Made by a program: the position numbers and the translations under genes. From IMG/VR virus record IMGVR_UViG_2909314774_000005: a stretch of 40,883 bases of DNA. One strand, written 5' to 3'. The notes beneath the pieces were generated by a model. The model worked only from the letters and a program-made list of their open reading frames with translations, did no database searches and had not been told where the DNA came from. This DNA comes from a virus. Lineage: Duplodnaviria; Heunggongvirae; Uroviricota; Caudoviricetes. Positions 5,010 through 40,883 of the stretch are shown here, one piece after another (position 1 is the stretch's first letter; every line of letters begins with the position of its first letter).

Positions 5010-5019
5010 GTTTCCCTCC

Positions 5020-7122: not shown

Positions 7123-8042
7123 TACTGCATATCCTCCGGTCGGTTGATTTCAGGTTCCGGTTCGGTCAGCCAGGCGGGGGCATCGTTACCCGATGGAGCG
7201 GCCTCAAGGTCAAACGTCTCACGTAATGCATGAACACTGCGTTCAATCTGGCAGACCAGACCGGCCATGAAATCTCTGGGGGTATCGATCATGTTTTTGG
7301 TGCAGTATTCACACAGGGTCTCAAAAACACTGGACAGCCGGACGGCGATAGCCGATTCGGCCTCAACCGCTAATGCCGTCACTTCCGCCCGCAATTTTTT
7401 CAGTTCTTCGTCTGGCGGCGGAGGTTGCAGGCGCGATTTCTTCTCCAGTTTTGTGGCCAGTTCGTTGATTTTTTCGTCCTTTCCGGCAAGCACCTGTTGC
7501 TGAGCTGCGTTGGTTTCGCGCGCTTCACGCAGGGCGGCCTTCAGTTCGCGGCTGGTCATGCGATCAATATCATCAAGCGTTGCACCGGCGACGGTTCCAC
7601 CATCAGCTAATGCGTCGAGTTCTTCGTCATCCAGAACCATCAGTTCATATAACTTGGTTTTTCCCAAAACGCTCAGCGCTGAGCGTTTTGGCTGTTCATC
7701 TCCATTGCCGAGAAATTTCACGCTGGCCTGCATCATGCGACGAGCTACCTGTGGTGCTAATCCGAGGTCGTTTTCCAGAATATTTGTGAAATCACCATGC
7801 GGTTCATTTTCTTTTAAGATGATCAGCCGCTTACCCGCTTCCAACATAGATTCAGCACTCTGCGCCATATAAAAACGTGCTTCGTGAACGATGCGTTCAC
7901 GTTCATAAGGCAGTCCATCACCAAACTGCTGCATGATCTCCATGCGATGCTGTGTCATGGCATTCAGGCTGACGTTGAGATCATCCGACAGCGGTACATC
8001 GGCGTTCAGTTCAGTGTTAATCGGTGATTTGGTACGTCCCAT
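7122..8042 (-). CDS. conserved Mu-like early protein (306 aa, possibly DUF3102-like; coiled-coil centre, Pro-rich linker)
   Basis: ATG preceded by AAGGAG; central EELKKLRAEV coiled-coil-like segment and PPPPDEE linker; family assignment is from memory and unverified. Confidence 0.6.
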   Translation of the reverse strand: MGRTKSPINTELNADVPLSDDLNVSLNAMTQHRMEIMQQFGDGLPYERERIVHEARFYMAQSAESMLEAGKRLIILKENEPHGDFTNILENDLGLAPQVARRMMQASVKFLGNGDEQPKRSALSVLGKTKLYELMVLDDEELDALADGGTVAGATLDDIDRMTSRELKAALREARETNAAQQQVLAGKDEKINELATKLEKKSRLQPPPPDEELKKLRAEVTALAVEAESAIAVRLSSVFETLCEYCTKNMIDTPRDFMAGLVCQIERSVHALRETFDLEAAPSGNDAPAWLTEPEPEINRPEDMQ

Positions 8043-8052
8043 TGATTACTCC

Positions 8053-8367
8053 TTACAAACGACTACCTGAAATGACACGTTGGTTAATTTCGTTAATACG
8101 ATCCTGTGCACGTGCCATCTCGTTACTGTGGGCCATGGCGATCTGCAGTAACTGGATGCCCGGTGCAAAACGTCCGTTCTCCAGTTTCAGAGCCAGCCCT
8201 TCTTCAATGAGGGTGTTGAGTGCCCGGTTGATGTTTGCCGGTGACTCGTGCAGTGCTGTCGCCAGTTCACCGTTAGAAATACCGTTCAGGGCATGACCGC
8301 GCAGCGCTTTGAGTACCCGGAGGATGCGACTGCCGGAGCTTGAAACATTCGTCTTACTCATCTGCAT
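8053..8367 (-). CDS. winged-helix DNA-binding protein (104 aa), second early regulator candidate
   Basis: RILRVLKALRGHALNGISNGELATALHESPANINRALNTLIEEGLA has a MarR/IclR-like wHTH pattern; ATG with AGAGG upstream. Confidence 0.55.
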   Translation of the reverse strand: MQMSKTNVSSSGSRILRVLKALRGHALNGISNGELATALHESPANINRALNTLIEEGLALKLENGRFAPGIQLLQIAMAHSNEMARAQDRINEINQRVISGSRL

Positions 8368-8413
8368 ACCTCTTTTGCGATATGTGATAACCTTTTACAA
8401 AGACTCAAAATAT

Positions 8414-8602
8414 TTAGGCCGCCTGAGCTGTTGATTTCAGTCCCAACTTCACGGCGATTTCATGGGATTTACCGTAACGGGCTTTGGTCTGCCCGTTGAG
8501 AACGCGGTATACCTCATTGCGGTTGTAGCCGTTTTCTTCTGCCCAGCGGGTGAAAGTGATCCCGCGCTGGCGGAAGAGAGCTTTGACTTGTTCTGCAGTC
8601 AT
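8414..8602 (-). CDS. Ner-like/Cro-like DNA-binding regulator, first gene of the early operon
   Basis: 62-aa basic HTH protein (FTRWAEENGYNRNEVYRVLNGQ), ATG preceded by AAGGAG; divergent from the repressor gene across a palindromic operator. Confidence 0.75.
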   Translation of the reverse strand: MTAEQVKALFRQRGITFTRWAEENGYNRNEVYRVLNGQTKARYGKSHEIAVKLGLKSTAQAA

Positions 8603-8654
8603 CGTTGTCTCCTTTGTTGATGCAATGATGTTTGCCTTATATGTGTTAGATTAT

Positions 8655-8672
8655 TGCTCATAATTATGAGCA
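8655..8672. promoter_or_regulatory. 18-bp perfect palindrome TGCTCATAATTATGAGCA in the divergent repressor/early-operon control region
   Basis: Read directly: 9+9 perfect inverted repeat centred in the 93-bp AT-rich spacer between the ner-like start (8602) and repressor start (8696). Confidence 0.5.
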
Positions 8673-8695
8673 TATCAAGATAGAGATTCACTTTT

Positions 8696-9052
8696 ATGAG
8701 CAAAGATATAGGAGAGCGCGTTATTTCTGTGAGGAAGAAAGCAGGGTTGAACCAGAGAGAATTTGCAGCTCGTTTAGGTATTTCTAATGGTGGTATCAGT
8801 CAGATTGAAAATGGAAAGGCGATGCCTGGAGGGGAGTTTCTGTTAAAGATGCATCAAGAGTTTAATGTTGATGTAAATTGGTTGCTCACTGGAATGAGCA
8901 CAGATGGTATGACTAGAAACCAGAATCAAATTTCCCCAGAAAAACAAAAACTAATAGATACTTTTGACGACATGACACCAGACCAACAACGCTCATTTCT
9001 TGAGATTGGGCGATTCTATACTCAGCCAAAACCAGGAAAAATCGCAGGCTGA
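8696..9052 (+). CDS. XRE-family HTH repressor (c-repressor analogue)
   Basis: 118-aa ORF with Cro/C1-type HTH (LNQREFAARLGISNGGISQIENG) and WLLTG motif; transcribed opposite to the early operon; weak SD, as is common for repressors. Confidence 0.8.
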   Translation: MSKDIGERVISVRKKAGLNQREFAARLGISNGGISQIENGKAMPGGEFLLKMHQEFNVDVNWLLTGMSTDGMTRNQNQISPEKQKLIDTFDDMTPDQQRSFLEIGRFYTQPKPGKIAG

Positions 9053-9137
9053 TACTGACCCGGACACAAAGGACAGGTGGTTGATCTGGATGCTTTCAGA
9101 AAACATCGCCAGTGACATAGTGGAAGTTGTTTGGTTT

Positions 9138-9170
9138 ACCGGAAAGCATTGTGCTTTCCGGTTTTGTTTC
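9138..9170 (+). terminator. Rho-independent terminator downstream of the repressor gene
   Basis: Perfect 10-bp stem ACCGGAAAGC / GCTTTCCGGT with 5-nt loop followed by TTTTGTTT on the + strand; the T tract overlaps the dam stop codon on the other strand. Confidence 0.55.
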
Positions 9171-9933
9171 AGAAGTTGCAGATTAGCAGTTCACGGCGCG
9201 GCGTGGGTTTACCCGCCAGACTGTAGTTGATATTCACTGTCTGTATGTTCAGTCCAGTGAACACCTCGCGCATCTGCGGGATGTCGTTCACCGAAATTAT
9301 CATTTTTCCTCTGATGCACCGGGCCAGCTCTGCCAGCCGCGAGTAGTTCCCTTCAGGAAAATCCACACCATAGCCTTCCGTACCCAGGTACGGTGGGTCG
9401 CAGTAGAACAGCGTGTGCGGACGATCATAACGCTCAATGCACTGTTGCCAGTCCATGTGTTCTATGACTGTTCTGGAAAGCCGCAGGTGTGCCGCTGACA
9501 GTTCTTCTTCAATACGTAGCAGGTTGAAGCGTGGCGGGGATGTGGTGGAGGTACCGAAGCTGTGCTCTGCCACCTTGCCGCCAAACGCCTGCTTCTGAAG
9601 GTAGTAGAACCGTGCCGCACGCTGGATATCCGTCAGTGTTTCTTCCGGGGTGATCTGCAGCCATTTGTAGATCTGACGGCTGACCAGCGCCCATTTGAAC
9701 TGGCGGACAAATTCTTCCAGGTGATGCTTTACCACCCGGTACAGATTCACCAGTTCACCGTTGATATCATTGATGACTTCGATCTTGCCGGGTGTCTTAA
9801 GAAAATAGAGCGCTGCTGCCCCACAAAACGGCTCCACATAACATTCATGCGCCGGAAACAGCGGCAGAATGTGTTTTGCAAGGCGGCGTTTGCCACCAAT
9901 CCACGGCACGATGGGTAATGTCTGCATTTTCAT
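9169..9933 (-). CDS. DNA adenine methyltransferase, Dam family (D12-class N6-MTase)
   Basis: N-terminal PWIGGKRRL and FxGxG-like VEPFCGAAALYF AdoMet motif, C-terminal catalytic DPPY (LFYCDPPYLG); start taken at ATG 9933 (MKMQTLP) rather than track start 10023. Confidence 0.85.
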   Translation of the reverse strand: MKMQTLPIVPWIGGKRRLAKHILPLFPAHECYVEPFCGAAALYFLKTPGKIEVINDINGELVNLYRVVKHHLEEFVRQFKWALVSRQIYKWLQITPEETLTDIQRAARFYYLQKQAFGGKVAEHSFGTSTTSPPRFNLLRIEEELSAAHLRLSRTVIEHMDWQQCIERYDRPHTLFYCDPPYLGTEGYGVDFPEGNYSRLAELARCIRGKMIISVNDIPQMREVFTGLNIQTVNINYSLAGKPTPRRELLICNF

Positions 9934-9981
9934 AATCTGCAAGCCTTTTACAATTATTAAAAAATATGGCAGTCTGGTCAG

Positions 9982-9993
9982 GTCTCGCGAGAC
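9982..9993. promoter_or_regulatory. 12-bp perfect palindrome GTCTCGCGAGAC about 50 bp upstream of the dam start
   Basis: Read directly; flanking arms extend the dyad imperfectly; no adjacent T tract on either strand, so more likely a protein-binding site than a terminator. Confidence 0.35.
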
Positions 9994-10123
9994 TGACTGA
10001 ACCTTGGTCGGCTCACAGCGCATTCCTGTGGGGCGATGACCAGCCCGGCTTTCGGGTGCCGGGCTGGTCGTTCTTTCATGATGCGGCAGGGATGGCGGGA
10101 TTTCTGTTAATGTGGTTTAGGGA

Positions 10124-10339
10124 TTATCCGGGGCGATTTTCTGACCTTATCCGGTCCAGGGCATAAGTAATACCTTCTGCAAAAACAGAAGTATCAAACT
10201 GCTTTTGTATTCCCTGAAAATGAAAAGCGGCACGACAGACACTCAGTTCTCCGCGGTATAACCGGATAATATCTTCCAGAACATTGTTCACTGCTTCAGC
10301 ACGGCGCTGATGTTCTGTTAACGTTAATCGGGGATTCAT
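10124..10339 (-). CDS. hypothetical protein (71 aa)
   Basis: ATG preceded by a strong TAAGGAG SD at 6-7 nt spacing; no recognisable motif; lies in an AT-richer stretch. Confidence 0.45.
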   Translation of the reverse strand: MNPRLTLTEHQRRAEAVNNVLEDIIRLYRGELSVCRAAFHFQGIQKQFDTSVFAEGITYALDRIRSENRPG

Positions 10340-10742
10340 GATGCACTCCTTAAATGATGATTTTTATGTACTCACCGGCAAAATATTCTGCCGATTACTG
10401 AACACGCATCCGGCACCTCAGGTTTTGATTTATTCTGGTTTTTTCGATATCCCGGACCAGGTTGATCACGACCAGAAAAAGTGCCGGTGTTTTATTGATA
10501 CGCTGATATGGCTTCGGGATAACAGCTATATTCGTTACTCTCAGTTGCTGGCTGTGGGAGCGGCTGATGTCGTCCTCACGGAAAAAACGCTCTGTCTGCT
10601 CAATGCCATGCCGACCTTTCTGCAGCCCCGGCCCGTACCATTTAAAGAGTCACTTCTGGATGCAGTAAAAACCGGTGAAAATGCAGTCATCGCTGAATGC
10701 GTATCCCGGATTATGCGTTACGTGTTTAATGAACGTAAGTGA
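10338..10742 (+). CDS. hypothetical protein (134 aa)
   Basis: ATG preceded by CGGGGA; exactly fills the 378-bp gap between the P-loop gene stop and the 71-aa ORF start; its start overlaps the 71-aa ORF start on the other strand (shared CATG), so one of the two may be spurious. Confidence 0.35.
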   Translation: MMHSLNDDFYVLTGKIFCRLLNTHPAPQVLIYSGFFDIPDQVDHDQKKCRCFIDTLIWLRDNSYIRYSQLLAVGAADVVLTEKTLCLLNAMPTFLQPRPVPFKESLLDAVKTGENAVIAECVSRIMRYVFNERK

Positions 10743-11446
10743 GGTTTATCCGCTGTCTGCATAATCCCGATAGCCAGTGCGAGGGGAAGTAATTCCGGGG
10801 AAACTCTTTCAAACAGCGATGCCCATTCTCCTCTCGCCATCACTCTGTCCAGCCCGCCCTCCAGTTGCATTTCAGCAATCTTCCTGATTTCCCGGAACAA
10901 CGCCGCTTTGATCTCTTCATGCTCAGCTTTATTTTCCGGTGTCAGAAGGTATTCGTCGAAGAACCGGGGAGGCTGGTTAATCGGGATGTGTTCCTGTTTG
11001 CCGTACTTCGGGGACGAACAACATTCTGTTGACTGACCAGTGAGTTTACGTAACTCCTTCATGAGCAGCTCCTGATCGTAAACTGTCATCAGTGCCGCAA
11101 TGGTGGCATGCAGTGCATCGGGCAGTATCCAGGGTTGCCGGCCCGTGGGGCATATAACATCCAGCAGCTCATTCGTCCGACAGATACGCTCCTCGCCGTA
11201 TGACAACAGGCCCTGTCCCGTGTATTCCTCCAGCCTGATCACTGTGCCAGCCCGTGGTTTCTGCCATGTGCTCAGATCATCCCCACTCATACGGCGCTCA
11301 CCGTCCACGTCTGCGGCGTCGACAATGACGCTGTTTCCGAATTCCTGTTTCACCACTTCCTCTATTCGCGCCAGTACGTAACTTTTACCGCTGCCCACAG
11401 GACCGGACACGGTGACAGTGATGACCGGATTCAGTGTCTGCGTCAT
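10718..11446 (-). CDS. uncharacterised P-loop NTPase (242 aa)
   Basis: Walker A GPVGSGKS at residues 15-22; ATG preceded by GAGGAG; divergently transcribed from the lysis operon; no family recognised for the C-terminal 160 residues. Confidence 0.75.
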   Translation of the reverse strand: MTQTLNPVITVTVSGPVGSGKSYVLARIEEVVKQEFGNSVIVDAADVDGERRMSGDDLSTWQKPRAGTVIRLEEYTGQGLLSYGEERICRTNELLDVICPTGRQPWILPDALHATIAALMTVYDQELLMKELRKLTGQSTECCSSPKYGKQEHIPINQPPRFFDEYLLTPENKAEHEEIKAALFREIRKIAEMQLEGGLDRVMARGEWASLFERVSPELLPLALAIGIMQTADKPHLRSLNT

Positions 11447-29503: not shown

Positions 29504-30645
29504 ACAGCACTGCGCAAGTCACATCAGCGTTAACCGGCGTCAGCGATGTGCTGACACCGGTGTTCACTCTGTGGTATCTGCAGAAAAACATCACCTCTGA
29601 TATCGCGCCTTATGTCACCCGTGTGACCTGGAGCGATAACATCAAAAATGAGTCCGATACCATTGAGGTGGAGCTGGACGACACCGATGGCCGCTGGCTG
29701 GATAAATGGTATCCGGGCAAGGGTGACACGCTGACGCTGAAAATGGGCTATCAGGGCGAGAAGCTGCTGTCCTGCGGTACGTTCTCTATAGACGAGATCG
29801 AAGTGAGTTCGCCCGCTTCCGTTGTTTCTATCCGTGGGGTGGCCACCTCGGTTAACAGTGCCCTGCGGACTAAAACCAGTCGTGGTTTTGAGAACACCAC
29901 GCTGGCAGCTGTTGCGGGGCGGATTGCCAGAAAGCACCGGCTGAAACTGGTGGGCAGCATTGAGTCCATCAGAATCGACCGGGTGACCCAGTATGCTGAA
30001 ACCGACGTGGGTTTTCTGCGCCGGCTGGCCAGCGAGTATGGTTATGCAGTGAAAGTGGTCAGTGACCAGCTGATTTTTTCTCATCTGGCCACACTGCGCA
30101 GTCAGGAGCCGGTCAGGCAGTTAAAACCGCAGGATGTGGCCCGCTTTTCCCTGCGTGACACCATCAACCGGGTCTATAAATCTGCAAAGGTAAAACACCA
30201 GAAAAGCAGCAGTAAAAAACTGATCGTCTACGAAGCTGATGGTGGTACCCGTGAAAGCGACAAAAAGCTCAAAGGTGGTAAGGTTACCAGCGCTGACTCA
30301 CTTAAAGTTAACAGCCGCGTCAGCGACCCGGACAGTGCCCGGATTAAAGCGGATTCAGCACTGGCCAGACATAACGAATACCAGCAGAACGGCTCCCTGA
30401 CGCTGACGGGAACACCTCAACTGACAGCAGGCAACAAAATTGAACTGGTGAGTTTTGGGCAGTTATCCGGGCCATGGCTCATAACCACTGCCCGCCATGC
30501 GTTTGACCGTAACAGCGGCTACACCACAGAGCTGGAAGTGGCACGGGGGCCAGTCACAAGAGGGAAAAAACAAAAAACTCAGAAACTCACGGTTTATCAC
30601 CCGGATGGCAGTACATCGACGGTGATTAAGGAGAAGAAAAAATGA
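29491..30645 (+). CDS. tail/baseplate hub protein (Mu P/gp44-like, P2 gpD-like)
   Basis: 384-aa ORF in the conserved position upstream of the spike gene. Confidence 0.8.
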   Translation: MAEINSTAQVTSALTGVSDVLTPVFTLWYLQKNITSDIAPYVTRVTWSDNIKNESDTIEVELDDTDGRWLDKWYPGKGDTLTLKMGYQGEKLLSCGTFSIDEIEVSSPASVVSIRGVATSVNSALRTKTSRGFENTTLAAVAGRIARKHRLKLVGSIESIRIDRVTQYAETDVGFLRRLASEYGYAVKVVSDQLIFSHLATLRSQEPVRQLKPQDVARFSLRDTINRVYKSAKVKHQKSSSKKLIVYEADGGTRESDKKLKGGKVTSADSLKVNSRVSDPDSARIKADSALARHNEYQQNGSLTLTGTPQLTAGNKIELVSFGQLSGPWLITTARHAFDRNSGYTTELEVARGPVTRGKKQKTQKLTVYHPDGSTSTVIKEKKK

Positions 30646-31238
30646 CTGGTGTCACTCGTCAGGTCGGTACGGTCAGTGCCGTTGATGCCGACAGGGTTCA
30701 GGCCCGCGTTCGTCTGCCTGAATGCGATAACCTGCGCACAAACTGGCTTAACGTGCTGCAGCGCAATACCCAGGATAACAAAGATTACTGGCTCCCTGAC
30801 GTGGGGGAGCAGGTTGAGGTGCTGCTCGATGCCAACGGCGAGGATGGTGTTATTCTGGGCGCGGTGTATTCAGACGTCGATAAACCACCGTTCAGTGACA
30901 AAAATATCCGGGGAACCCGGTTTGCTGATGGTGCAGAGTACAGCTACAACCGGAAGACGCACACTCTGATCATCCGGGGCGGCATTGAGCATATTGTCAT
31001 TGAGTGTGGTGCTGATGTGGTATTGAAAACACAGAAAGCCACGATTGACGCACCGGAAACCGAACTTACCGGAGATCTGCGTGTCAGGGGTAAGCTGATT
31101 TACGAAGGAGGCATGGCGGGTTCTGGTGGTGAAGGTGTTACCGCGACCATCCATGGCAATATCGAGATTAAAGGGAATGTCCATGCCACGGGCAGTATGT
31201 TGTCTGATGGCGAAAACTCCAGCCACCACTCCCACTGA
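30642..31238 (+). CDS. baseplate spike protein (gpV-like, Mu gp45-like)
   Basis: 198-aa ORF, strong SD (AAGGAGAAG); C-terminal Gly-rich beta-helix-like region. Confidence 0.8.
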   Translation: MTGVTRQVGTVSAVDADRVQARVRLPECDNLRTNWLNVLQRNTQDNKDYWLPDVGEQVEVLLDANGEDGVILGAVYSDVDKPPFSDKNIRGTRFADGAEYSYNRKTHTLIIRGGIEHIVIECGADVVLKTQKATIDAPETELTGDLRVRGKLIYEGGMAGSGGEGVTATIHGNIEIKGNVHATGSMLSDGENSSHHSH

Positions 31239-31274
31239 GCTTTTTAAACGCCTTTAATATCAGCGTTCCCGCAC

Positions 31275-31292
31275 GGGGGCAATACTGCCCCC
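31275..31292 (+). other. perfect hairpin GGGGGCA-ATAC-TGCCCCC ending 1 nt before the start codon of the next gene
   Basis: Read directly; 7-bp GC-rich stem immediately upstream of ATG 31293; no T tract follows. Confidence 0.4.
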
Positions 31293-31640
31293 ATGAAAAC
31301 AACCTCAGTATTCTGGCAACCAGCCCTGCAGGCTCCCGGCGAAATTGTCCGGGGGCTGGATGATATCCGGCAGGCGATTCAAATTATCCTGCGGACTCCC
31401 CGCGGCAGCGACCCGCATCGCCCGGAGTTCGGCAGCAATCTGCATCTTTATATCGACTGGCCTGTAGACCGGGCCATTCCGCATGTGGTGCGCGAATCCG
31501 TCGATGCCATCCGGCGCTGGGAGCCCCGCTGCCAGCTTATGTCAGTTAAACCCGCCGTCGACGGCGAACATCTTACGCTCCGGGTGAGCTGGAAAGGCTC
31601 AGACGGACAGACCCGGACTCAGGAGCTGCTATGGCGCTGA
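31293..31640 (+). CDS. baseplate wedge protein, GPW/gp25-like (Mu gp46-like)
   Basis: 115-aa ORF with GPW-like N-terminal motif (IRQAIQIILRTPRGSDPHRPEFGSNL). Confidence 0.75.
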   Translation: MKTTSVFWQPALQAPGEIVRGLDDIRQAIQIILRTPRGSDPHRPEFGSNLHLYIDWPVDRAIPHVVRESVDAIRRWEPRCQLMSVKPAVDGEHLTLRVSWKGSDGQTRTQELLWR

Positions 31641-32734
31641 CAGAACCCGATTTTATTGAACGCGATGCCGACAAAATCACGGCAGAAATGATTGCGAAGT
31701 ATGAAGCGGATACCGGCAAAACGCTGTACCCGGCACAGGCAGAACGTCTGCTGATTGATCTGTGGGCCTATCGCGAAATGCTGGTCAGGGTTGCGGTACA
31801 GGAGGCAGCAAAGCAGAATCTGGTCGCCTTTGCCCGTGAGCCGATGATTGATTACCTCGGTGAACTGGTCGGTGTATACCGTCTTGCCGCGCAGCCTGCC
31901 ACCACCACGCTCCAGTTCTCCGTAGATGAGGCACTGGCCATTGATGTGCTGATCCCGGCAGGCACCCGCGTCAGCGCTTCCGACAGCGTTATTTTTGCCA
32001 CCGATACAGATGTGGTACTGAAGGCCGGATTGCTGCTGGTCAATGTCACGGCCACCTGTACCGAACCCGGTACCGCTGGTAACGGCTGGCAACCTGCGCA
32101 GGTCAGTCAGTTACTCGATGAGATTGATAACGTTAACCTGCTGGTGAGCAATCTGATGGCCAGTTCCGGCGGTTCAGAACAGGAAGACGATGACAGGCTC
32201 CGGGAGCGTATCAGGCTGGCCCCGGAGTCATTCACCAATGCCGGAAGCCGTGGCGCATACCGCTTTCATGCCATGCAGGCCCATCCCAACATTGTCGATG
32301 TTGCTGTGCTTTCCCCGGTTCCCGGGACCGTAGATCTGTATCCGCTGCTCAGTACCGGTCTGCCGGACGGCGGTGTTCTCACGCTGGTAGAGAGTTTCTG
32401 CTCTGATGAGAAAGTCAGGCCACTCACTGATACAGTGCGGGCTAAAACACCAGTGAAGGTGGATTACACCATTGAAGCCAGGATTACGATCTATCGTGAT
32501 CAGGATGCCAGGTCTGTAAAAGATGCCGCTAACAGCGCCATACAGAACTGGGTGGCATCACGTGCCGCCACGCTGGGGCGCGATATTGTCCCCAGCCAGA
32601 TTATCAGTGCATTGTCCGTTTCCGGGGTGTACCAGGTTGAACTGGTGACACCGGCACTGCGGGTGGTGGCAGAAAACGAATGGGCAAACTGTACGGCAAT
32701 CACTCTTAACATGACTGGAGTGTCTGATGACTGA
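31631..32734 (+). CDS. baseplate J-like protein (Mu gp47-like)
   Basis: 367-aa ORF, ATG preceded by AGGAG, overlaps neighbours on both sides. Confidence 0.8.
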   Translation: MALTEPDFIERDADKITAEMIAKYEADTGKTLYPAQAERLLIDLWAYREMLVRVAVQEAAKQNLVAFAREPMIDYLGELVGVYRLAAQPATTTLQFSVDEALAIDVLIPAGTRVSASDSVIFATDTDVVLKAGLLLVNVTATCTEPGTAGNGWQPAQVSQLLDEIDNVNLLVSNLMASSGGSEQEDDDRLRERIRLAPESFTNAGSRGAYRFHAMQAHPNIVDVAVLSPVPGTVDLYPLLSTGLPDGGVLTLVESFCSDEKVRPLTDTVRAKTPVKVDYTIEARITIYRDQDARSVKDAANSAIQNWVASRAATLGRDIVPSQIISALSVSGVYQVELVTPALRVVAENEWANCTAITLNMTGVSDD

Positions 32735-33305
32735 GCCATTACAACTCCCGCCACCGCTTGAGGGTGATATCAGTCTCAGGACGCTGGGAAGACTGGCAGG
32801 ACGGCTGGATAACATCGACCTGAGCGTACTGATGGTCTTTCTCGTCGATATCGTCGACAGTTCCGCGCTGCCATGGCTGGGCGAGCAGTTCTCACTGTCT
32901 GGCGATGGCTGGGAGCTGGCGGAATCGGACGATGTTCGCCGCATGCTTATAAAAGCAGCCATCGAACTGCACCGGTATAAAGGGACGCCGTGGTCAATCC
33001 GGGAAGTTATCCGCCGTTTTGGCTTTGGTGAAGTGGATCTGATTGAAGGCACAGGTCGTCTCAGTTACGACGGCAATCGCAGCTATAACGGACTGTTTGT
33101 TCATGGAGATGCAGCCGCCTGGGCAGTTTATCGCGTTATTCTGAAACAGCCCATTACTAACGATCAGGCCGCGATGCTGCGTCAGACGCTGGCTGCATTT
33201 GCACCGGCCCGCTGCCATCTGGCCAGCCTGGAGTATCAGTCTGTGGCCATTCGCTATAACAATACCGCCATCCATGATGGCAGTTATAACCACGGGAGCA
33301 GTTGA
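32727..33305 (+). CDS. tail protein I-like (Mu gp48-like, P2 gpI-like)
   Basis: 192-aa ORF between the J-like and tail-fibre genes. Confidence 0.75.
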   Translation: MTEPLQLPPPLEGDISLRTLGRLAGRLDNIDLSVLMVFLVDIVDSSALPWLGEQFSLSGDGWELAESDDVRRMLIKAAIELHRYKGTPWSIREVIRRFGFGEVDLIEGTGRLSYDGNRSYNGLFVHGDAAAWAVYRVILKQPITNDQAAMLRQTLAAFAPARCHLASLEYQSVAIRYNNTAIHDGSYNHGSS

Positions 33306-33307
33306 TT

Positions 33308-34639
33308 ATGGGAAACCTGAATGAAACAGAAAAGTGGGAAGAAAATATCTATCAACTGGAGACATCAGATCCGGTTCTGGGTGGTGCAGACGGGATATCA
33401 AATCGAGCCCCCCGGCAACTGGCAAACAGGACGAAATGGCTGAAGAAGAAAACGGAGGAAGCCGCACAGTCACTGGCTGAACACGTACGTTCCCGTAACC
33501 ACCCGGACGCGACACTGACAGCTAAGGGGTTCACCCAACTGAGCAGTGCCACCAACAGCACCTCTGAAACGCTGGCCGCCACACCAAAAGCGGTCAAGGC
33601 TGCATACGACCTGGCAGCCGGCAAGGCGCCTGCCAGCCACACTCACCCGTGGAGTCAGATAACGGGAGTGCCTGCGGCTTCACTGACGGCAAAAGGCACC
33701 GTACAACTGAGCAGCGCCACGGACAGTCAATCAGAAACTGAGGCTGCCACGCCGAAGGCGGTCAAGGCTGCATACGACCTTGCAGCCGGCAAGGCGCCCG
33801 TCAGCCACACTCACCCGTGGAGTCAGATAACGGGAGTGCCTGCTGCCTCGCTGACGGCAAAAGGCACCGTACAATTGAGCAGTGCCATCAACAGCACGTC
33901 TGAAATACTGGCCGCCACACCGAAAGCGGTCAAGGCTGCATACGATCTGGCAAACGGAAAACAACCGGCAGATGCCACGCTCACTGCTCTGGCAGGACTT
34001 GCCACTGCAGCAGATCGGTTGCCTTATTTTACCGGAGCAGACCGCGCAGAGCTGGCAACCCTTACAGCTATTGGTCGCGCTATTATCGCTAAGGGCAGTA
34101 TAAAAGATGTCCTCAATTACCTTGGTTTAGGAGAAGGCTCGGCGCTACCCGTTGGTGTGCCTGTTCCGTGGCCCACCGCCACACCGCCAGCAGGCTGGTT
34201 AAAGTGCGACGGGCGCGCCTTTACAAAAGAACAATATCCTGTTCTGGCCAGAGTCTACCCGACCCTCCGTCTTCCCGATTTACGCGGTGAGTTTATCCGT
34301 GGATGGGACGACGGGCGCAAAGTTGATACAGGACGTAAGTTGCTGTCCGCACAAGGGGCAACGCTGTTAAGAACAGCAATGCTGGATTATTATAACCAGG
34401 ACACTACGGGAACCTCGGGGATAGTCGGCATGGGATTCAACAATGAAGATTCCATTACAGACCTTCGTGAGGGCAGCTTTAAAATGCCGGACGGGACAAC
34501 ATTCAGCGATCCTGTCGTGGCAATGTCAGACAATGGTATGCAGGCTACTATTCTGACCTCTATCAGAAGCGGGTATGCGAAGGGTATCACTGTCAGACCC
34601 CGTAGCATTGCACTTAATTACATTGTGAGGGCAGTTTAA
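33308..34639 (+). CDS. tail fibre protein (constant N-terminal part plus currently expressed C-terminal variable cassette)
   Basis: 443-aa ORF from first ATG; internal 56-aa tail-fibre repeats; C-terminal part after the gix-like site (from LGEGSALPVGVPVPWP) is homologous to the two inverted cassettes downstream. Confidence 0.85.
   Translation: MGNLNETEKWEENIYQLETSDPVLGGADGISNRAPRQLANRTKWLKKKTEEAAQSLAEHVRSRNHPDATLTAKGFTQLSSATNSTSETLAATPKAVKAAYDLAAGKAPASHTHPWSQITGVPAASLTAKGTVQLSSATDSQSETEAATPKAVKAAYDLAAGKAPVSHTHPWSQITGVPAASLTAKGTVQLSSAINSTSEILAATPKAVKAAYDLANGKQPADATLTALAGLATAADRLPYFTGADRAELATLTAIGRAIIAKGSIKDVLNYLGLGEGSALPVGVPVPWPTATPPAGWLKCDGRAFTKEQYPVLARVYPTLRLPDLRGEFIRGWDDGRKVDTGRKLLSAQGATLLRTAMLDYYNQDTTGTSGIVGMGFNNEDSITDLREGSFKMPDGTTFSDPVVAMSDNGMQATILTSIRSGYAKGITVRPRSIALNYIVRAV
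33518..33961 (+). repeat. tandem 168-bp (56-aa) repeats, about 2.6 copies, inside the tail-fibre gene
   Basis: Protein repeats TAKG(F/T)xQLSSAxxSxSExxAATPKAVKAAYDLAAGKAPxSHTHPWSQITGVPAASL starting at residues 73, 129 and 185. Confidence 0.8.
34110..34135 (+). other. gix-like recombination site (expression-locus copy) at the constant/variable junction of the tail-fibre gene
   Basis: Right half-site GGTTTAGGAGAA resembles the Gin/Hin site half GGTTTACAGGAA (from memory); the same half-site recurs inverted at 35713-35738 and 38692-38717, exactly where homology to the fibre C-terminus begins. Confidence 0.55.
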
Positions 34640-35253
34640 TGAGTAACACTGCAGTTCTGGATGAAAACGGTATCGCCACTGTAGCGGGCGATATCACTGT
34701 ATATCACTATGACGAGGAAACCCGGGAATACACCTCATCCTCTGTGGAGTATCTCGCCCTTGGGGTGGGTACTCCGGCACATTCGTGCGCCGATGCACCG
34801 CCGGAAGCAATTTCGGGTTACGTGGTTTGCCGGACTGCCACGCTGAACGGGTGGGAGCATGTGCCTGATCACCGCGGCGAGACGGTATACAGCACGGAGA
34901 ACGGTAACCCCGTTCTGATTACCCAACCGGGTGATTACCCGGCGGACACCACCACAAAACAGCCAGCCACGCCATGGGATACCTGGAACGGTGAGGCGTG
35001 GGTAACCGATACTGAACGGCAGCGAGCCGCAGAACTGGAGGTTGCCAGACAGCAACGCCAGCAACGGGTGAAACAGGCGATGGCGTCCGTCGATCTTATC
35101 AACCTCAAACTGCGTGCTGGTCGCAGTCTGAAACCAGAAGAAACGGCAAAACTGAACGCCGTGCTGGATTATATCGACGAGCTGAACGCACTGGATATCA
35201 GCAAGGCACCTGAAATCAGCTGGCCGGAAGCGCCACTGGCGCTTGCCGGCTGA
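34639..35253 (+). CDS. tail fibre assembly chaperone (Tfa family, Mu U-like)
   Basis: 204-aa ORF with Tfa-like motifs (VPDHRGETVY ... WNGEAWVTDTE ... ISKAPEISWPEAP), directly after the fibre gene. Confidence 0.8.
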   Translation: MSNTAVLDENGIATVAGDITVYHYDEETREYTSSSVEYLALGVGTPAHSCADAPPEAISGYVVCRTATLNGWEHVPDHRGETVYSTENGNPVLITQPGDYPADTTTKQPATPWDTWNGEAWVTDTERQRAAELEVARQQRQQRVKQAMASVDLINLKLRAGRSLKPEETAKLNAVLDYIDELNALDISKAPEISWPEAPLALAG

Positions 35254-35259
35254 ACGGTA

Positions 35260-35721
35260 TCACGCCGCCCTCACGATATAGTTAAATGCGATATTGCGGG
35301 GGCGAGCTGATACATAAGCCCACCAGTCATATCTTTGTGCACCTTTAGAGGATGCATCAAATATCCACTTTTTGCCATTTAAGACCCCCAGTTGATTAGA
35401 GGTTAAAGCGTCACCAAATCCGTATTGTGTAGAGCCGAGCGAACTGATATCTCCGGTATCATTATCATCAAAACCGGATACGATAGTCCCTTCCTGAAAT
35501 GAAAGTAGCGCACGCCCGGTATCAACCTTGCGACCACCGTCCCATCCACGGATAAACTCACCGCGCAAATCGGGAAGACGGAGGGTCGGGTAGACTCTGA
35601 CCAGAACAGGATATTGTTCTTTGGTGAACGTAGCTCCGTTGCACTGTAACCAGCCTGCTGGCGGTGTGGCGGTGGGCCATGGAACCGGTACACCAACAGG
35701 CAATGCAGAGCCTTCCCCCAA
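35260..35721 (-). CDS. silent, inverted alternative tail-fibre C-terminal cassette (153 codons, begins with Leu TTG at the gix site)
   Basis: First about 70 residues near-identical to the expressed fibre C-terminal region (GEGSALPVGVPVPWPTATPPAGWL...), divergent tip, same C-terminal ending (RPRNIAFNYIVRAA); no ATG, so expression requires inversion. Confidence 0.7.
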   Translation of the reverse strand: MGEGSALPVGVPVPWPTATPPAGWLQCNGATFTKEQYPVLVRVYPTLRLPDLRGEFIRGWDGGRKVDTGRALLSFQEGTIVSGFDDNDTGDISSLGSTQYGFGDALTSNQLGVLNGKKWIFDASSKGAQRYDWWAYVSARPRNIAFNYIVRAA

Positions 35722-35738
35722 ACCAACGTTTCTATGCC
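35713..35738 (-). other. gix-like recombination site (inverted copy 1)
   Basis: TTCCCCCAAACC-AA-CGTTT on the + strand, reverse complement of the GGTTTGGGGGAA half-site, located at the 5' end of the silent cassette. Confidence 0.5.
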
Positions 35739-35905
35739 GCCCTTACGATGTAATTAAACGCAATGTTACGGGGACGAATGGTCACATAATTAACCCCATC
35801 GCCTCGCGAAGGACCTGCAAATGAAAAACGGGAGAATCCAGGTTGGTTGTCAACGATTTGGTCATAGTTATTGATTGAATGACCAGACCCAATGTCAAAA
35901 TTACC
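35732..35905 (-). pseudogene. 3' fragment of a second silent tail-fibre cassette, separated from its 5' part by the IS66-family insertion
   Basis: - strand reading frame open from the IS boundary to a stop at 35732-35734, ending ...IRPRNIAFNYIVRAA like the other cassettes; joins in frame with fragment 38438..38700 when the IS and one target-duplication copy are removed. Confidence 0.7.
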
Positions 35906-35935
35906 GTAAGCGTCAACGGAGCACCGTATTGACGC

Positions 35936-37549
35936 TTATTTATTGGTGAGTACTACGTTCCATGGCAGGAGTTCGTCAACTCGGTTGGAAGGCCATTCCG
36001 GCAGTACGCTCAGGATATGGCGCAGATACGCTTCCGGATCGATACCGTTCAGACGGCAGGTGCCGATCAGCCCGTACAACAGTGCTCCACGCTCGCCGCC
36101 GTGATCGCTGCCAAAGAACATAAAGTTTTTCTTTCCGAGACAGACTGCACGAAGCGCTCTTTCCGCAGCATTATTATCCGCCTCCGCCAGACCGTCATCA
36201 CTGTAATAACAGAGGGCATCCCACTGATTCAGTACATAGCTGAACGCTTCGCCCAGTCTGGATTTTTTCGACAGCGTACCATTCTTCTCCACCATCCATT
36301 CATGCAGCGACGTCAGTAACACTTTGCTTCGCTGCTGCCTGACGGCAAGACGCTCTGACTCCGGTAATCCCCGTATTTCATCCTCGATGGCGTACAGTTC
36401 ACTGATTCGCTTCAGGGCTTCTTCTGCCGTCGCACTTTTGCTGCTGATGTATACATCGTGGATTTTTCGCCGGGCATGGGCCCAGCACGCAACTTCTGTC
36501 AGTGCACCACCTTCACGTTCTGCACTGAACAACCTGTCGTAACCTGTGAACGCATCCGCCTGCAGGATACCCCGGAAGGGGCGGAGGTGTTGCTCCGGGT
36601 GTTTCCCCTGCCGGTTCGGCGAGTACGCGAACCAGACCGCTGGAGGAGATGACGAACCCACATTGCGATCATCCCGGACATACGTCCAGATACGCCCTGT
36701 TTTCGCCTTTTTCTGACCCGGTGCCAGTACCTTTACCGGTGTGTCATCAGTGTGAACCTTGCGGGTGTTCATTACATAACGGTACAGGGCATCATTCACC
36801 GGTGTCATTAACTGGCAGCACGCGTCAACCCAGTTGGAGAGTAAGGCCCGGCTCAGTTCGACACCCTGGCGGGCAAAGATTTCACTCTGACGATACAGTG
36901 GCAGATGTTCGCAGTATTTTCCCGTTAACACGCGGGCAAGTAATCCGGGGCCCGCGATACCACGCTCTATCGGGCGGGACGGCGCCGGTGCTTCAACAAT
37001 ACAGTCACATTTTGTACAGGCTTTTTTTACCCGTTCTGTGCGGATCACTTTCAGGGCACTGCTCACCAGTTCCAGCTGTTCAGCGCTGACTTCCCCCAGA
37101 TAATCCAGCTCACCGCCACACTCCGGGCAACAGCTTTCTTCTGGCTCCAGGCGGTGTATTTCACGGGGAAGGTGTGCCGGTAACGGACGACGATGGCGCG
37201 ACTGTCGCAACTGGCGGGGAACCTGAGGATCGTCTTCCCGCCCACTGTAACGATCGCTGTCCTGTTCACGTTGTTTCAGCAGAGCCTCAGCCAGTTCAAC
37301 TTCACGACGCAGTTTTTCAGAACGGGTACCGAACAGCATCCGGCGCAGTTTTTCTATCTGAGCCCGCAGATGTTCTATTTCCCGTTCATCTTCTTCGATC
37401 TTTTCTTCGGCACGTGTCAGTGCAGAGCGCAGGAAGGCTTCCGTCTCTTCAACCAGACTCAGTTGCTGGTCTTTCTGACGGAGGGCTTCAGCCTGCTCAG
37501 AGAGCAACCTTTCCAGCTCTGCGATGCGAATGAGGTATTTCTGACTCAT
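35936..37549 (-). CDS. IS66-family transposase (orf3/TnpC-like, 537 aa)
   Basis: N-terminal leucine-zipper-like region, CxxC...CxxC zinc motif and DDE core typical of IS66 transposases as I recall them. Confidence 0.8.
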   Translation of the reverse strand: MSQKYLIRIAELERLLSEQAEALRQKDQQLSLVEETEAFLRSALTRAEEKIEEDEREIEHLRAQIEKLRRMLFGTRSEKLRREVELAEALLKQREQDSDRYSGREDDPQVPRQLRQSRHRRPLPAHLPREIHRLEPEESCCPECGGELDYLGEVSAEQLELVSSALKVIRTERVKKACTKCDCIVEAPAPSRPIERGIAGPGLLARVLTGKYCEHLPLYRQSEIFARQGVELSRALLSNWVDACCQLMTPVNDALYRYVMNTRKVHTDDTPVKVLAPGQKKAKTGRIWTYVRDDRNVGSSSPPAVWFAYSPNRQGKHPEQHLRPFRGILQADAFTGYDRLFSAEREGGALTEVACWAHARRKIHDVYISSKSATAEEALKRISELYAIEDEIRGLPESERLAVRQQRSKVLLTSLHEWMVEKNGTLSKKSRLGEAFSYVLNQWDALCYYSDDGLAEADNNAAERALRAVCLGKKNFMFFGSDHGGERGALLYGLIGTCRLNGIDPEAYLRHILSVLPEWPSNRVDELLPWNVVLTNK

Positions 37550-37579
37550 GACCGTTTTTATAATGCGGTCAGGAGTTTT

Positions 37580-37930
37580 TTACAACATTGTCAGTGAGTT
37601 ACGGCTGGATGTTTTTGGCTGACGCCAGTCCAGCTTATCGAGGAGCATTGCCAGTTGCGAGCGGGTAATGGATACCTTGCCGTCACGTACCGCAGGCCAG
37701 ATAAACTGGCCTTCCTCCAGGCGTTTGGTGAACAGGCACAGACCATCAGCATCAGCCCAAAGAATTTTGACGGTGTCACCCCGTCGGCCACGGAAGATAA
37801 ACAGGTGACCGGAGAAGGGATTATCATTCAGCACATGTTGTACCTGTTCTCCCAGTCCGTTGAAGGATTTACGCATATCGGTAACGCCGGCAACGAGCCA
37901 GATACGGGTACCTGATGGGAGTGAGATCAT
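37580..37930 (-). CDS. IS66-family accessory protein (orf2/TnpB-like, 116 aa)
   Basis: Size, position and 4-nt overlap with orf1 typical of IS66 elements. Confidence 0.75.
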   Translation of the reverse strand: MISLPSGTRIWLVAGVTDMRKSFNGLGEQVQHVLNDNPFSGHLFIFRGRRGDTVKILWADADGLCLFTKRLEEGQFIWPAVRDGKVSITRSQLAMLLDKLDWRQPKTSSRNSLTML

Positions 37931-38352
37931 CTTCCCCTCCCGGTCAGTTCACGGATCAACACTGTGAGCAGCTCTGGCGATGGATTTTCCAGCGTCATGT
38001 TACCGTGACGGAATTCCACCTTGCAGGAACTGGCACTGACTCTGGTCTGAGTGGAAGTGGATAAAGACGGCGCAATGGCCGCCACAGGTTCTTTCTGCTC
38101 ATCCGGCGTTATTTCTACAGGTAATAATTCAACGCCAGTGTCAGAAGAGGTCGTTACCGGAAGACGCCGCGAAACACGCCCTTCGTTCTGCCAGAGCCTG
38201 AGCCATTTGAAAATAACATTATCATTGACGCCATTTTCACGTGCAATCTGTGCAACACAAGCTCCAGGTTGTGATGCCAGTTCCACCATACGAAGTTTGA
38301 ATTCATTCGAATAGTTTTTACGAGGTTCTTTTCGCCAGTCCTGTAATTCCAT
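37927..38352 (-). CDS. IS66-family accessory protein (orf1/TnpA-like, 141 aa, HTH)
   Basis: N-terminal HTH (FKLRMVELASQPGACVAQIARENGV); first ORF inside the IS. Confidence 0.75.
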   Translation of the reverse strand: MELQDWRKEPRKNYSNEFKLRMVELASQPGACVAQIARENGVNDNVIFKWLRLWQNEGRVSRRLPVTTSSDTGVELLPVEITPDEQKEPVAAIAPSLSTSTQTRVSASSCKVEFRHGNMTLENPSPELLTVLIRELTGRGR

Positions 38353-38437
38353 ACTTAGATGTCCGTCTATATCAGATGGGCGTCTAAGTTACCAATTCTC
38401 GTCTGATGGCTACATACGGCGGTCAGTTTACGCTTAC

Positions 38438-38700
38438 AAATTACCTGCGTAATGAGAAAAACTTGTACCATCCTGCCGTGAAAGCAGATCGCGCCCTGTA
38501 TCCACTTTTCGCCCGTCGTCCCATCCACGGATAAACTCACCGCGTAAATCGGGAAGACGGAGGGTCGGGTAGACTCTGGCCAGAACAGGATATTGTTCTT
38601 TTGTAAAGGCGCGCCCGTCGCACTTTAACCAGCCTGCTGGCGGTGTGGCAGTGGGCCACGGAACAGGTACACCAACGGGCAGCGCCGAGCCTTCCCCCAA
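38438..38700 (-). pseudogene. 5' fragment of the IS-disrupted silent tail-fibre cassette (begins with Leu TTG at the gix site)
   Basis: About 85 codons near-identical to the start of the expressed cassette (GEGSALPVGVPVPWPTATPPAGWLKCDGRAFTKEQYPVLARVYPTLRLPDLRGEFIRGWDDGRKVDTGR), then runs into the IS end. Confidence 0.7.
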
Positions 38701-38717
38701 ACCAACGTTTATCTCTC
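38692..38717 (-). other. gix-like recombination site (inverted copy 2), adjacent to gin
   Basis: TTCCCCCAAACC-AA-CGTTT, identical core and half-site to copy 1; lies about 55 bp upstream of the invertase gene. Confidence 0.5.
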
Positions 38718-38771
38718 AAATCCTCCCCACATTATCTCAGTACTTTAACCACTCAAAAGGGAGTATTTTTA

Positions 38772-39344
38772 ATGCTGATTGGCTACATACGTGTGTCAAC
38801 AAATGACCAAAACACAGATTTGCAACGCAATGCATTAATGTGCGCAGGATGTGAACAGATTTTTGAGGACAAAATGAGCGGAACCAAGTCGGAACGACCA
38901 GGCCTGAAACGCGCTTTAAAGTGCCTTAAAAGAGGGGATACATTGGTGGTCTGGAAGCTGGATCGGTTGGGTAGAAGAATGAAACACCTCATTGCTCTCA
39001 CAGAAGAGCTACGCGCAAAAGGTGTCAATTTTCGCAGTCTGACGGATTCAATCGATACCAGCACTCCGATGGGAAGGTTCTTTTTTCATATGATGGGTGC
39101 ACTGGCAGAAATGGAGCGTGAACTGATAGTTGAGCGCACGCTGGCTGGACTGGCTGCTGCGCGAGCACAAGGAAGAGTTGGAGGACGTCGCCCGAAACTG
39201 ACGAAGGAGCAGCATGAGCAGATCGCAAGATTGCTCCAGAAAGGGTATGACAGAAAGCGGCTGGCAATTATCTATGATATTGGACTGTCAACGATCTACC
39301 GCTATCACCCTGTTGGGACTGTCATAACGCAACCTGAAATGTAA
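38772..39344 (+). CDS. gin: serine DNA invertase, Gin/Pin/Hin family
   Basis: 190-aa ORF from ATG 38772 (AAGGGAG upstream); near-identical over much of its length to Mu Gin as recalled (MLIGYIRVSTNDQNTDLQRNAL ... GRFFFH.MGALAEMERELI.ERT); catalytic Ser in RVSTNDQ. Confidence 0.9.
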   Translation: MLIGYIRVSTNDQNTDLQRNALMCAGCEQIFEDKMSGTKSERPGLKRALKCLKRGDTLVVWKLDRLGRRMKHLIALTEELRAKGVNFRSLTDSIDTSTPMGRFFFHMMGALAEMERELIVERTLAGLAAARAQGRVGGRRPKLTKEQHEQIARLLQKGYDRKRLAIIYDIGLSTIYRYHPVGTVITQPEM

Positions 39345-39378
39345 TTCTTTTTCAAATAATGAAACGCCGCGTGGATGC

Positions 39379-39422
39379 CATTTATCGCACAAGATAGAGT
39401 GCATTTATCGCGCGGCGCATCA
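39379..39422 (+). other. prophage right terminus with Mu-like transposase-binding repeats, ending ...CGCGGCGCATCA
   Basis: Two direct CATTTATCGC repeats and a TGAAACGCCGCG motif resembling the Mu right-end sites (Mu end recalled as ...CGTTTTTCGTGCGCCGCTTCA); terminal CA-3'. Confidence 0.55.
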
Positions 39423-39528
39423 TTCTTCATGTGAATCATCCGTTGATTAATTATATATAAACATTATGTATCAACAAGTTACATTGATAATTAACGCTAC
39501 CATTAATAAAAATACCCCACAAGGTCCG

Positions 39529-39557
39529 AAAAAAAACGCCGGCAATGTGCCGACGTC
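39529..39557 (-). terminator. Rho-independent terminator of host aroA
   Basis: On the - strand: 7-bp stem (CGUCGGC / GCCGGCG, one G-U pair) with 5-nt loop followed by eight U; about 45 nt downstream of the aroA stop. Confidence 0.6.
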
Positions 39558-39599
39558 TTTGAAAAGAAAGGATTGTCTATGTTATCGCCCGTTATTCAT

Positions 39600-40883
39600 T
39601 CAGCCGGGTTGACTTATCCGCGCCAATTGCTCGAAATAGTCTGGAAAAGTTTTAGCGGTACATTTTGGATCAAGAATCGTCACAGGCGTATCTGATAATG
39701 CGACCAGCGAGAAACACATCGCCATCCGGTGATCATTATAAGTGGCGATCTCAGCAAATTTCAGTTTTTCCGGTGGCGTAATGCGAATGAAATCATGCCC
39801 CTCTTCGACTTCCGCACCGACTTTACGCAGTTCTGTTGCCATCGCAAACAGGCGATCGGTCTCTTTAACACGCCAGTTATAGATATTGCGCAGCGTGGTG
39901 GTGCCTTTTGCAAATAACGCCGCGGTGGCAATGGTCATCGCCGCATCGGGAATATGGTTCATATCCATATCAATGGCGTTCAGTTCACCACGCGTGCAGG
40001 AAATATAATCATCGCCCCAGCAAATGGTCGCGCCCATTTTTTCCAGAACATCAGCAAAGCGAATATCACCCTGCATACTGTTGCGTCCAATGCCGGTCAC
40101 TTTTACAGTGCCGCCTCTGATTGCTGCTGCTGCCAGGAAATAAGAAGCCGAAGATGCATCGCCTTCAACCAAATAAGTGCCCGGAGACTGGTAAGACTGC
40201 CCCCCTTTTACGACAAATTGTTGATAGTGCTGATTTTCAATTTCAACACCAAACGTCTTCATCAGATTGAGGGTGATATCGATATAAGGTTTAGAAACCA
40301 GATCGCCTTTAATACGAATCACCGTATCTTCCGGCGCAAGAGGCGCAGTCATTAACAGTGCGGTGAGGAACTGGCTGGAAACGGAGCCATCAACATCAAC
40401 GTTGCCGCCAGTAAAGCCGCCCTGTAAACGCAATGGCGGATAATTTTCTTGTTCCAGGTAAGTGATCTTCGCCCCGCCCTGGCGCAGCGCATCCACCAGA
40501 TGACCAATCGGGCGTTCTTTCATTCGCGGTTCACCGCTCAGTACAATATCATTGCTACCCAGGCAAAGTGCTGCCGCCAGCGGACGCATTGCCGTTCCGG
40601 CGTTACCGAGGAACAACTCCCGGGCACTTTCTGCGTGTAATGGACCACCGTTACCGATAATTTCGCAACGCGTACGATCGGCTGAAAGCGTATAGCTTAC
40701 CCCTAACGCTGTTAATGCATTCAGCATATGGCGCACGTCATCGCTATCCAGCAGATTGGTTAATACTGTTTTGCCGTGTGCTAATGCCGCCAGCAATAAA
40801 GCGCGGTTAGAAACGCTCTTGGAACCGGGCAGATTAATAGTGCCATCGACACGAGCGATGGGTTGTAACGTTAGGGATTCCAT
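39600..40883 (-). CDS. aroA: 3-phosphoshikimate 1-carboxyvinyltransferase (EPSP synthase), host gene, complete
   Basis: 427-aa ORF matching Escherichia/Shigella AroA throughout as recalled ([35 protein letters not shown] ...); its ATG is the last 3 bases of the window. Confidence 0.95.

Follow-up and report, generated by a model that had tools for sequence, protein, structure and literature searches.

The 40,883-nt stretch of viral DNA that we analyzed, IMGVR_UViG_2909314774_000005 (hereafter the window), carries a tail-fiber region that is very probably the host-range switch of prophage Phi2, a multiple-inversion system of the Pin/Min type in which a single serine invertase would act on three 26-bp crossover sites (A, B and C; Table) to give four isomers of the region. 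In an alignment with Escherichia coli EC958 the window was 100.000% identical over positions 30302-35905 and 38438-40883, the sole difference being an insertion sequence (IS), and by this sequence match the locus is the P88-like prophage Phi2 of E. coli ST131 (host strain type O25b:H4-ST131 EC958), which, without the IS, stands next to aroA-serC in numerous ST131 genomes, EC958 among them. The Phi2 locus, its outer sites and its inversion have already been published, and Phi2 is a real and active switch whose type has long been familiar. In their Table 3, Forde et al. 2014 (PLoS One 9:e104400; PMC4134206) listed two Phi2 sites bounding one 2,067-bp invertible segment, found that segment both ways round in PacBio reads from a single EC958 culture, and reported high-frequency switching within one culture. 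Switching in the same prophage was treated again in a later preprint under the name 'Entero_P88'. Our sites A and C are the Phi2_5prime and Phi2_3prime of PMC4134206, whereas site B is missing from that table, and the middle site, the four isomers and the absence of a second gene for the tip chaperone (tfa) all go unmentioned there. What is new here is the middle site B, with which Phi2 becomes a Min-type switch (as in p15B) of three sites and four isomers; the discovery value is small, as the locus was published in 2014 and multi-site fiber switches have been known since p15B.

Three copies of the right half-site GGTTTRGGRGAA, and no more, are present in the window (34124 on the + strand, 35724 and 38703 on the - strand), where 0.01 would be expected by chance, and none of 100 shuffles reached three matches. 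At all three 26-bp sites the core is TT and the right half reads GGTTT(A/G)GG(A/G)GAA; site A is inverted relative to B and C. At each half-site begins a 229-nt inverted repeat that encodes a conserved Collar domain, the arm in the fiber gene being 94% complementary to the arm in silent cassette 3 (cas3) and 85% to that in silent cassette 2 (cas2). The cassettes follow one another head to tail, as the cas3 stop codon falls within the left half of B. The earlier note on this DNA, made by a model from the letters alone, had placed the expressed fiber C-terminus and two inverted silent cassettes at gix-like sites next to a Gin-family invertase, and all of these elements lie where it put them. The invertase (Pin) is 77% identical to Gin of phage Mu, 76% to PinE of e14 and 85% to the invertase of the P1-like plasmid pSA186_4; it combines the resolvase catalytic domain (PF00239, E-value 8e-51) with a C-terminal helix-turn-helix (HTH_7, PF02796, E-value 1e-12), which places it among the serine invertases, and has the YIRVSTNDQ motif. 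Similarity of the sites to validated ones, on which the note's reading depended, held up on alignment: site C is identical to the e14 site beside pinE at 20 of 26 positions, and its spacing from the invertase start codon equals that of Mu gixR, with which it also aligns. That alignment, of 271 nt reaching from site C through nucleotide 189 of pin against Mu gixR-gin, is gapless with 82% column identity, which coding constraint could explain; it says nothing firm about a Fis-dependent enhancer in the 5' part of the invertase gene, as Fis sites are not reliably callable from sequence.

From this arrangement we propose that sites B and C each head a promoter-less tip cassette, and that the three sites bound two segments: X, with the expressed variable end of the fiber gene (Sv1) followed by tfa and, facing them, cas2; and Y, with cas3 in the same orientation as cas2. 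Because inversion is possible between inverted sites only, four isomers can be reached. In state 1, that of the window, the constant part of the fiber gene (Sc) is joined to Sv1, and tfa is in sense; exchange between A and B would produce state 2, Sc joined to cas2 and followed by antisense tfa and Sv1; exchange between A and C would produce state 3, Sc joined to cas3, with cas2 in sense and tfa antisense; and inversion of X in state 3 would produce state 4, Sc joined to cas3 and then Sv1 and tfa in sense. Sc was in frame when fused to each of the three cassettes. We built states 2, 3 and 4 in silico from EC958 by exchange at the central TT and searched the resulting 2,513-bp queries against 5,426 complete E. 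coli genomes. Each of the three was present in complete ST131 genomes as a single 2,513-bp piece with 100.0% identity and 100% coverage (exact matches in at least 25 genomes for state 2 and in no fewer than 12 for either of the other two). Example genomes are EC958 and JJ1887 for state 1, AR_0055 for state 2, JJ1886 for state 3, and AR_0086 and U12A for state 4. The predicted recombinants thus exist unchanged in genomes, in addition to the mixed orientations of a single culture (PMC4134206), and with three sites and three in-frame tips all four isomers were observed. The note had suggested looking for both orientations, and both are there in the EC958 reads; its picture of a simple flip gives way to four isomers.

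Table. Features of the Phi2 switch region and its surroundings, with positions in the 40,883-nt window.
Feature	Position	Strand	Details
Fiber open reading frame	33302-34639	+	445 residues; three Phage_fiber_2 repeats and a Collar domain (Pfam)
Sc, constant 5' part of the fiber gene	33302-34121	+	TTG start overlaps the stop of gpI; identical in EC958
Site A	34110-34135	+	TCCTCAATTACC TT GGTTTAGGAGAA; within the fiber frame (N Y L G L G E)
Sv1, expressed variable C-terminus	34124-34639	+	Collar, variable tip, then ...RPRSIALNYIVRAV
tfa	34639-35253	+	204 residues; Pfam Caudo_TAP, E = 5.6e-27
cas2, silent tip cassette	35260-35721 or 35260-35724	-	153 residues; Collar, variable tip, RPRNIAFNYIVRAA
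Site B	35713-35738	- (read on the - strand)	GGCATAGAAACG TT GGTTTGGGGGAA; left half holds the cas3 stop
cas3, 3' part	35732-35905	-	last 57 codons; TAG stop at 35732-35734; bounded by the left target-duplication copy
IS66-family element (ISEc23-like) splitting cas3	35906-38437	-	2,532 bp; by Pfam; boundaries by EC958 alignment, with an 8-bp overlap
tnpC	35936-37549	-	DDE_Tnp_IS66
tnpB	37580-37930	-	TnpB_IS66
tnpA-like	37927-38352	-	HTH_Tnp_1
cas3, 5' part	38438-38703	-	Collar and first residues of the variable tip
Site C	38692-38717	- (read on the - strand)	GAGAGATAAACG TT GGTTTGGGGGAA; 54 bp upstream of the invertase ATG
pin, Gin/Pin/Min-type serine invertase	38772-39344	+	190 residues; intact; ATG start; 100% DNA identity to EC958

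The 229-nt repeats are long and 85-94% identical, enough for occasional homologous exchange, so the isomers might have been produced by RecA-dependent recombination between the repeats instead of by the invertase. Homologous exchange would put the junctions within diverged repeats and leave chimeric Collar segments behind, whereas the isomers that we built by exchange at the core match real genomes at 100.0% over 2,513 bases; since the repeats differ at 6-15% of positions and the listed isomers have no chimeric repeat, these exact matches argue that the exchange was site-specific and took place at the core. With, moreover, an intact invertase that is 76-85% identical to proven or typical invertases and the high-frequency switching reported within one culture (PMC4134206), we regard a RecA origin as extremely improbable. 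We give equally little credence to a Mu-like two-state switch, with one segment between the outer sites and mirror-image units of tip plus chaperone. Mu and e14 do have such a layout, PMC4134206 lists just A and C with the one 2,067-bp segment, and the legend to its figure portrays the switches of all three ST131 prophages as mirror-image arrangements that include a cognate minor fiber gene. That description does not fit the Phi2 sequence: a third site, B, sits where cas2 and cas3 meet and shares the right half-site and central dinucleotide of the outer two, tfa is present once only, and states 2 and 4, which require exchange at B, exist at 100% identity, so that the two-state explanation is already refuted. 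Phi2 is therefore to be corrected from a mirror-image two-state system to one with three sites and four isomers. As all four isomers are common in ST131, differences between assemblies in this region are switching rather than phylogenetic signal or mis-assembly.

Several points limit the reading of the region as a host-range switch. The case is built from sequence, and both induction of Phi2 and the function of any tip stay presumptive. The isomer frequencies are very rough: 350, 324, 406 and 388 records matched states 1 to 4 with at least 80% coverage, and the 165, 139, 101 and 83 genomes that we solved from these counts depend on an assumption about how the search tool joins pieces, each query covering ~81-82% of two other states. 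By these rough frequencies tfa is antisense in about half of the lysogens. The window is in state 1 with the invertase and all three sites intact; inversion of segment Y, enlarged here by the 2.5-kb IS, is presumptive. A different purpose for the switching would be service to the host, the inversion making fiber-derived cell-surface proteins that, for example, block adsorption of other phages. The cryptic prophages of E. coli K-12 offer a precedent in PinQ and StfE2 of e14 (PMC12529663), and the module is fixed beside aroA throughout ST131. The locus itself lends that reading no support, the fiber gene standing in an apparently complete late operon without a separate promoter, and P1-like plasmids, for which a host-range role is established, carry the identical module; we find it very unlikely as compared with a phage host-range switch.

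The multiple-inversion system Min of p15B was reportedly described by Sandmeier et al. in 1990 and 1992. Like it and the Min-like modules of P1-like phage-plasmids, Phi2 has more than two sites, overlapping segments, a constant 5' part with alternative 3' cassettes and a Pin-like invertase; unlike those modules it has three sites and four isomers only and resides on the chromosome, in a P88-like prophage, and not on a P1-like plasmid. The likeness to p15B Min is drawn from modern P1-like relatives. One of these was P1-like plasmid pB2C_96 (NZ_CP035876), with the end of Sc, Sv1, tfa, cas2, cas3 and pin at 97.2% identity over 3.1 kb (positions 3918-7031 of the stretch compared) and an identical Pin protein (WP_000904922.1); given this near-identity, P1-like plasmids and a P88-like prophage of the chromosome have exchanged the whole module in recent times. 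A much larger array was found in pSA186_4 (NZ_CP022733), also P1-like, with nine sites, eight tandem tfa-less Collar cassettes, one tfa and one invertase: one site lies in the fiber gene and eight head cassettes of 145-175 residues (positions 3409-10924 of the stretch compared), a layout that in principle permits a very large number of isomers. In pSA186_4, too, the left half of each cassette's crossover site holds the stop codon of the previous cassette. These two RefSeq plasmids replaced Punavirus vB_EcoM-673R5, which we had considered for a five-site, one-tfa layout and set aside for its frameshift-ridden sequence.

With the G segment and Gin of Mu, Phi2 shares the joining of a constant fiber part to alternative C-termini and the common direction in which fiber gene, tfa and invertase are transcribed. 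The Mu segment, however, switches between two states at two sites and carries a pair of mirror-image tfa genes, U and U'; its central dinucleotide is GA against AA here, and its tips are not Collar-type cassettes. The P segment and PinE of e14 resemble Phi2 in the invertase-proximal site, the central dinucleotide and the L-G-E-G-S start of the cassettes; by contrast with the three sites and one tfa of Phi2, there are only two sites in e14, and its tfa genes, tfaP and tfaE, form a mirror-image pair. Both Mu and e14, taken as controls, showed a co-oriented tfa after each tip (two tfa genes each), the G-segment architecture that Phi2 lacks. The R64 shufflon likewise shuffles clustered cassettes onto a constant 5' gene part and so changes the specificity of an adhesin, but its recombinase (Rci) is a tyrosine recombinase with other sites, its target is the PilV pilus tip, and the two systems are not known to be related by descent.

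A profile search of the whole window found one Caudo_TAP homolog, tfa itself, and cas2 and cas3 run straight into the next element with no tfa between. The note was thus right that the single tfa is co-oriented with the expressed tip, unlike the arrangement in Mu and e14. Its further claim, that after inversion the new cassette would be followed by an antisense tfa, always applies to cas2 and fails for cas3 in state 4, where Sv1-tfa follows in sense. In no isomer does cas2 have tfa in sense, because cas2 and tfa share one invertible segment in which they are convergent. Nor is the one-tfa layout an oddity, being standard in the Min-type modules of P1-like phage-plasmids, with up to eight tfa-less cassettes; by the sequences compared, one tfa with several tfa-less cassettes is a common arrangement, typical of this kind of switch. 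Among 79 related loci that we fetched from other Enterobacterales the Mu-like mirror layout was the most frequent, and segments with a single tfa recurred in Pantoea, Pseudocitrobacter, Photorhabdus, Siccibacter and Rosenbergiella, with a tfa-free segment in Arsenophonus. Phage 503046 has the same Sv1-tfa unit with one different tfa-less cassette, two sites and one tfa. None of the papers that we found takes up the number of tfa genes in multi-cassette switches.

How one chaperone gene could suffice for three tips may lie in the Tfa family to which this protein would belong, one associated with Collar tips and conserved in its N-terminal part across very different tips. The N-terminal 95 residues were 47-77% identical across loci with dissimilar tips, and this conservation despite differing tips suggests that Tfa binds a conserved part of the tip. 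Tfa would then probably recognize a conserved tip feature and serve any cassette whenever it is transcribed, that is, in states 1 and 4. Mu Tfa stays bound to the fiber tip. A sequence search of the PDB with Tfa returned no solved relative. For the cas2 state we weighed three outcomes, the first two of which the note had already raised. That cas2-type tips assemble without a cognate Tfa has, in our judgment, nearly an even chance; that Tfa is supplied in trans by other ST131 prophages in the cell is a fair deal less than an even prospect, though a serious one; and that virions in the cas2 state carry poor fibers or none is rather unlikely. A P2-like tail cluster of Rahnella laticis SAP-17 (gene order J-I-H-FI-FII, that is, H, then sheath and tube; positions 4953-9296 of the stretch compared) encodes a full-length fiber whose tip shares 76% identity with that of cas2; in this cluster gene G/tfa is absent, no tfa was found within 7 kb, and the gap between fiber and sheath genes is 165 bp. 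This tfa-less cluster gives some support to chaperone independence of cas2, within evidence that is mixed overall. Full-length Collar-tip fibers with no tfa detected nearby were also seen in Yersinia pestis/similis, Xenorhabdus and other loci. Among the sampled related loci, no tip that resembled the cas2-type or cas3-type tips at >46% identity was accompanied by a cognate tfa.

Other observations complicate this picture. The Rahnella cluster could be defective or could use a distant tfa. Tips that share 79-89% identity with two of the tfa-less cassettes in pSA186_4 are accompanied elsewhere by a cognate tfa, and so the lack of an adjacent tfa is no proof of independence. A tfa gene lies immediately downstream in 74 of ~115 related Collar tips, with 41 lacking it. 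A promoter and terminator scan of positions 33200-39500 found nothing in the invertible DNA save in the IS, and fewer sites than in shuffled sequence; with no promoter-like site for the inverted tfa, supply in trans or independence must be assumed. We had also considered the C-terminal motif as a marker of chaperone need and rejected it, as tips with and without a cognate tfa both end in RPRNIAFNYIVRAA. States 3 and 4 share the Sc-cas3 fiber and differ in tfa transcription, and for this reason there could be four functional states rather than three. If Tfa were to remain on the tip here as it does in Mu, tip identity and the Tfa cap would be varied independently, with cas2 self-assembling and the modules of P1-like plasmids designed as a mix of chaperoned and autonomous tips; we hold this extended scheme to be quite improbable. 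Whether Collar tips need their chaperone when tfa is inverted bears on the engineering of phage and tailocin host range, in which a cognate chaperone is usually assumed to be necessary.

It might be, instead, that the locus is a decaying remnant, the tfa-less cassettes being relics of tip-tfa units and the alternative fibers non-functional, with no counter-selection in the lysogen. Most related loci do carry a tfa after each Collar tip, these regions are hit repeatedly by IS elements, the prophage occupies one fixed position on the chromosome of a lineage that is clonal, and tfa-antisense states in about half of genomes are what would be expected without selection. What speaks for upkeep is that the tfa-less cassettes are all open and that their Collar regions have ratios of non-synonymous to synonymous substitution (dN/dS) of 0.06-0.16 (~0.10 for the Collar of cas2), while divergence in the C-terminal motif is purely synonymous (9 synonymous and 0 non-synonymous changes between cas2 and cas3 over the final 14 codons). 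The layout is, besides, preserved in several genera and in P1-like phage-plasmids, where as many as eight cassettes are intact, and the cas2-type tip is the sole tip of the tfa-less P2-like cluster of Rahnella. These substitution patterns point to cassettes that evolve as coding sequence, with the tfa-less ones maintained, and we judge decay unlikely.

In EC958 cas3 is uninterrupted, whereas in the window an ISEc23-like element lies inside it; uninterrupted cas3 encodes 142 residues in both EC958 and strain 2/0. The element shows the three ORFs (open reading frames), the terminal inverted repeats (ends GTAAGCG.../...CGCTTAC) and the 8-bp target duplication of the IS66 family, the duplication AAATTACC standing at 35898-35905 and 38438-38445; the name ISEc23-like is taken from the RefSeq annotation of the same transposase. 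As the IS interrupts cas3, the usable tips left in this strain would be Sv1 and cas2, and states 3 and 4 would yield a truncated fiber. The exact configuration of the window, state 1 with an IS in cas3, had no match among the 5,426 complete E. coli genomes. The target AAATTACC sits in a part of cas3 that is weakly like a crossover site, GTCAAAATTACCTGCGTAATGAGAAA (positions 5593-5618 of the EC958 stretch, found with a loose site pattern), a likeness that is probably coincidence. In strain R4 (NZ_CP107182; positions 2104-5216 of the stretch compared) an ISEc23 lies inside the Phi2 invertase gene, presumably locking the switch, which is there in state 3 (Sc-cas3, tfa antisense). In strain 1434 an IS66-family element sits within one cassette of another prophage switch, which is related to this one. 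We rejected both strains as matches to the window configuration, since these were separate events, one with the IS in pin and the other in another prophage. Elements of the IS66 family seem to strike these switch regions repeatedly.

Upstream of the fiber gene lie the baseplate genes V, W, J and I, in what is apparently a complete late operon. The start codon of tfa overlaps the stop of Sv1 (TAATG), with a GAGGG upstream as a possible ribosome-binding site, and the Collar region of Sv1 matches T4 gp37 (2XGF) and a short tail fiber (9CUY). Downstream, the invertase gene is the final gene of the prophage and is followed, on the opposite strand, by host aroA, with ~255 bp of AT-rich DNA (39345-39599) up to the aroA stop; because this spacer is so short, the end of the prophage (its attachment site) must fall within it. 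In the RefSeq annotation of EC958 and strain 2/0 the fiber reading frame, although intact (positions 3001-4338 of the EC958 stretch), is given as partial pseudogene fragments and a short 'phage tail protein', and each silent cassette is entered as a gene in its own right that starts at a TTG; this fragmentary annotation looks like an artifact of the unusual start codon and the switch. Within Sc, three tandem repeats of 168 nt (33513-34016) encode the Phage_fiber_2 shaft repeats, the second and third copies being 83% and 65% identical to the first. Elsewhere the fiber is 545 residues long (phage 503046) or ~930 (pB2C_96), with different numbers of repeats, and hence shaft length varies through the gain and loss of repeats.

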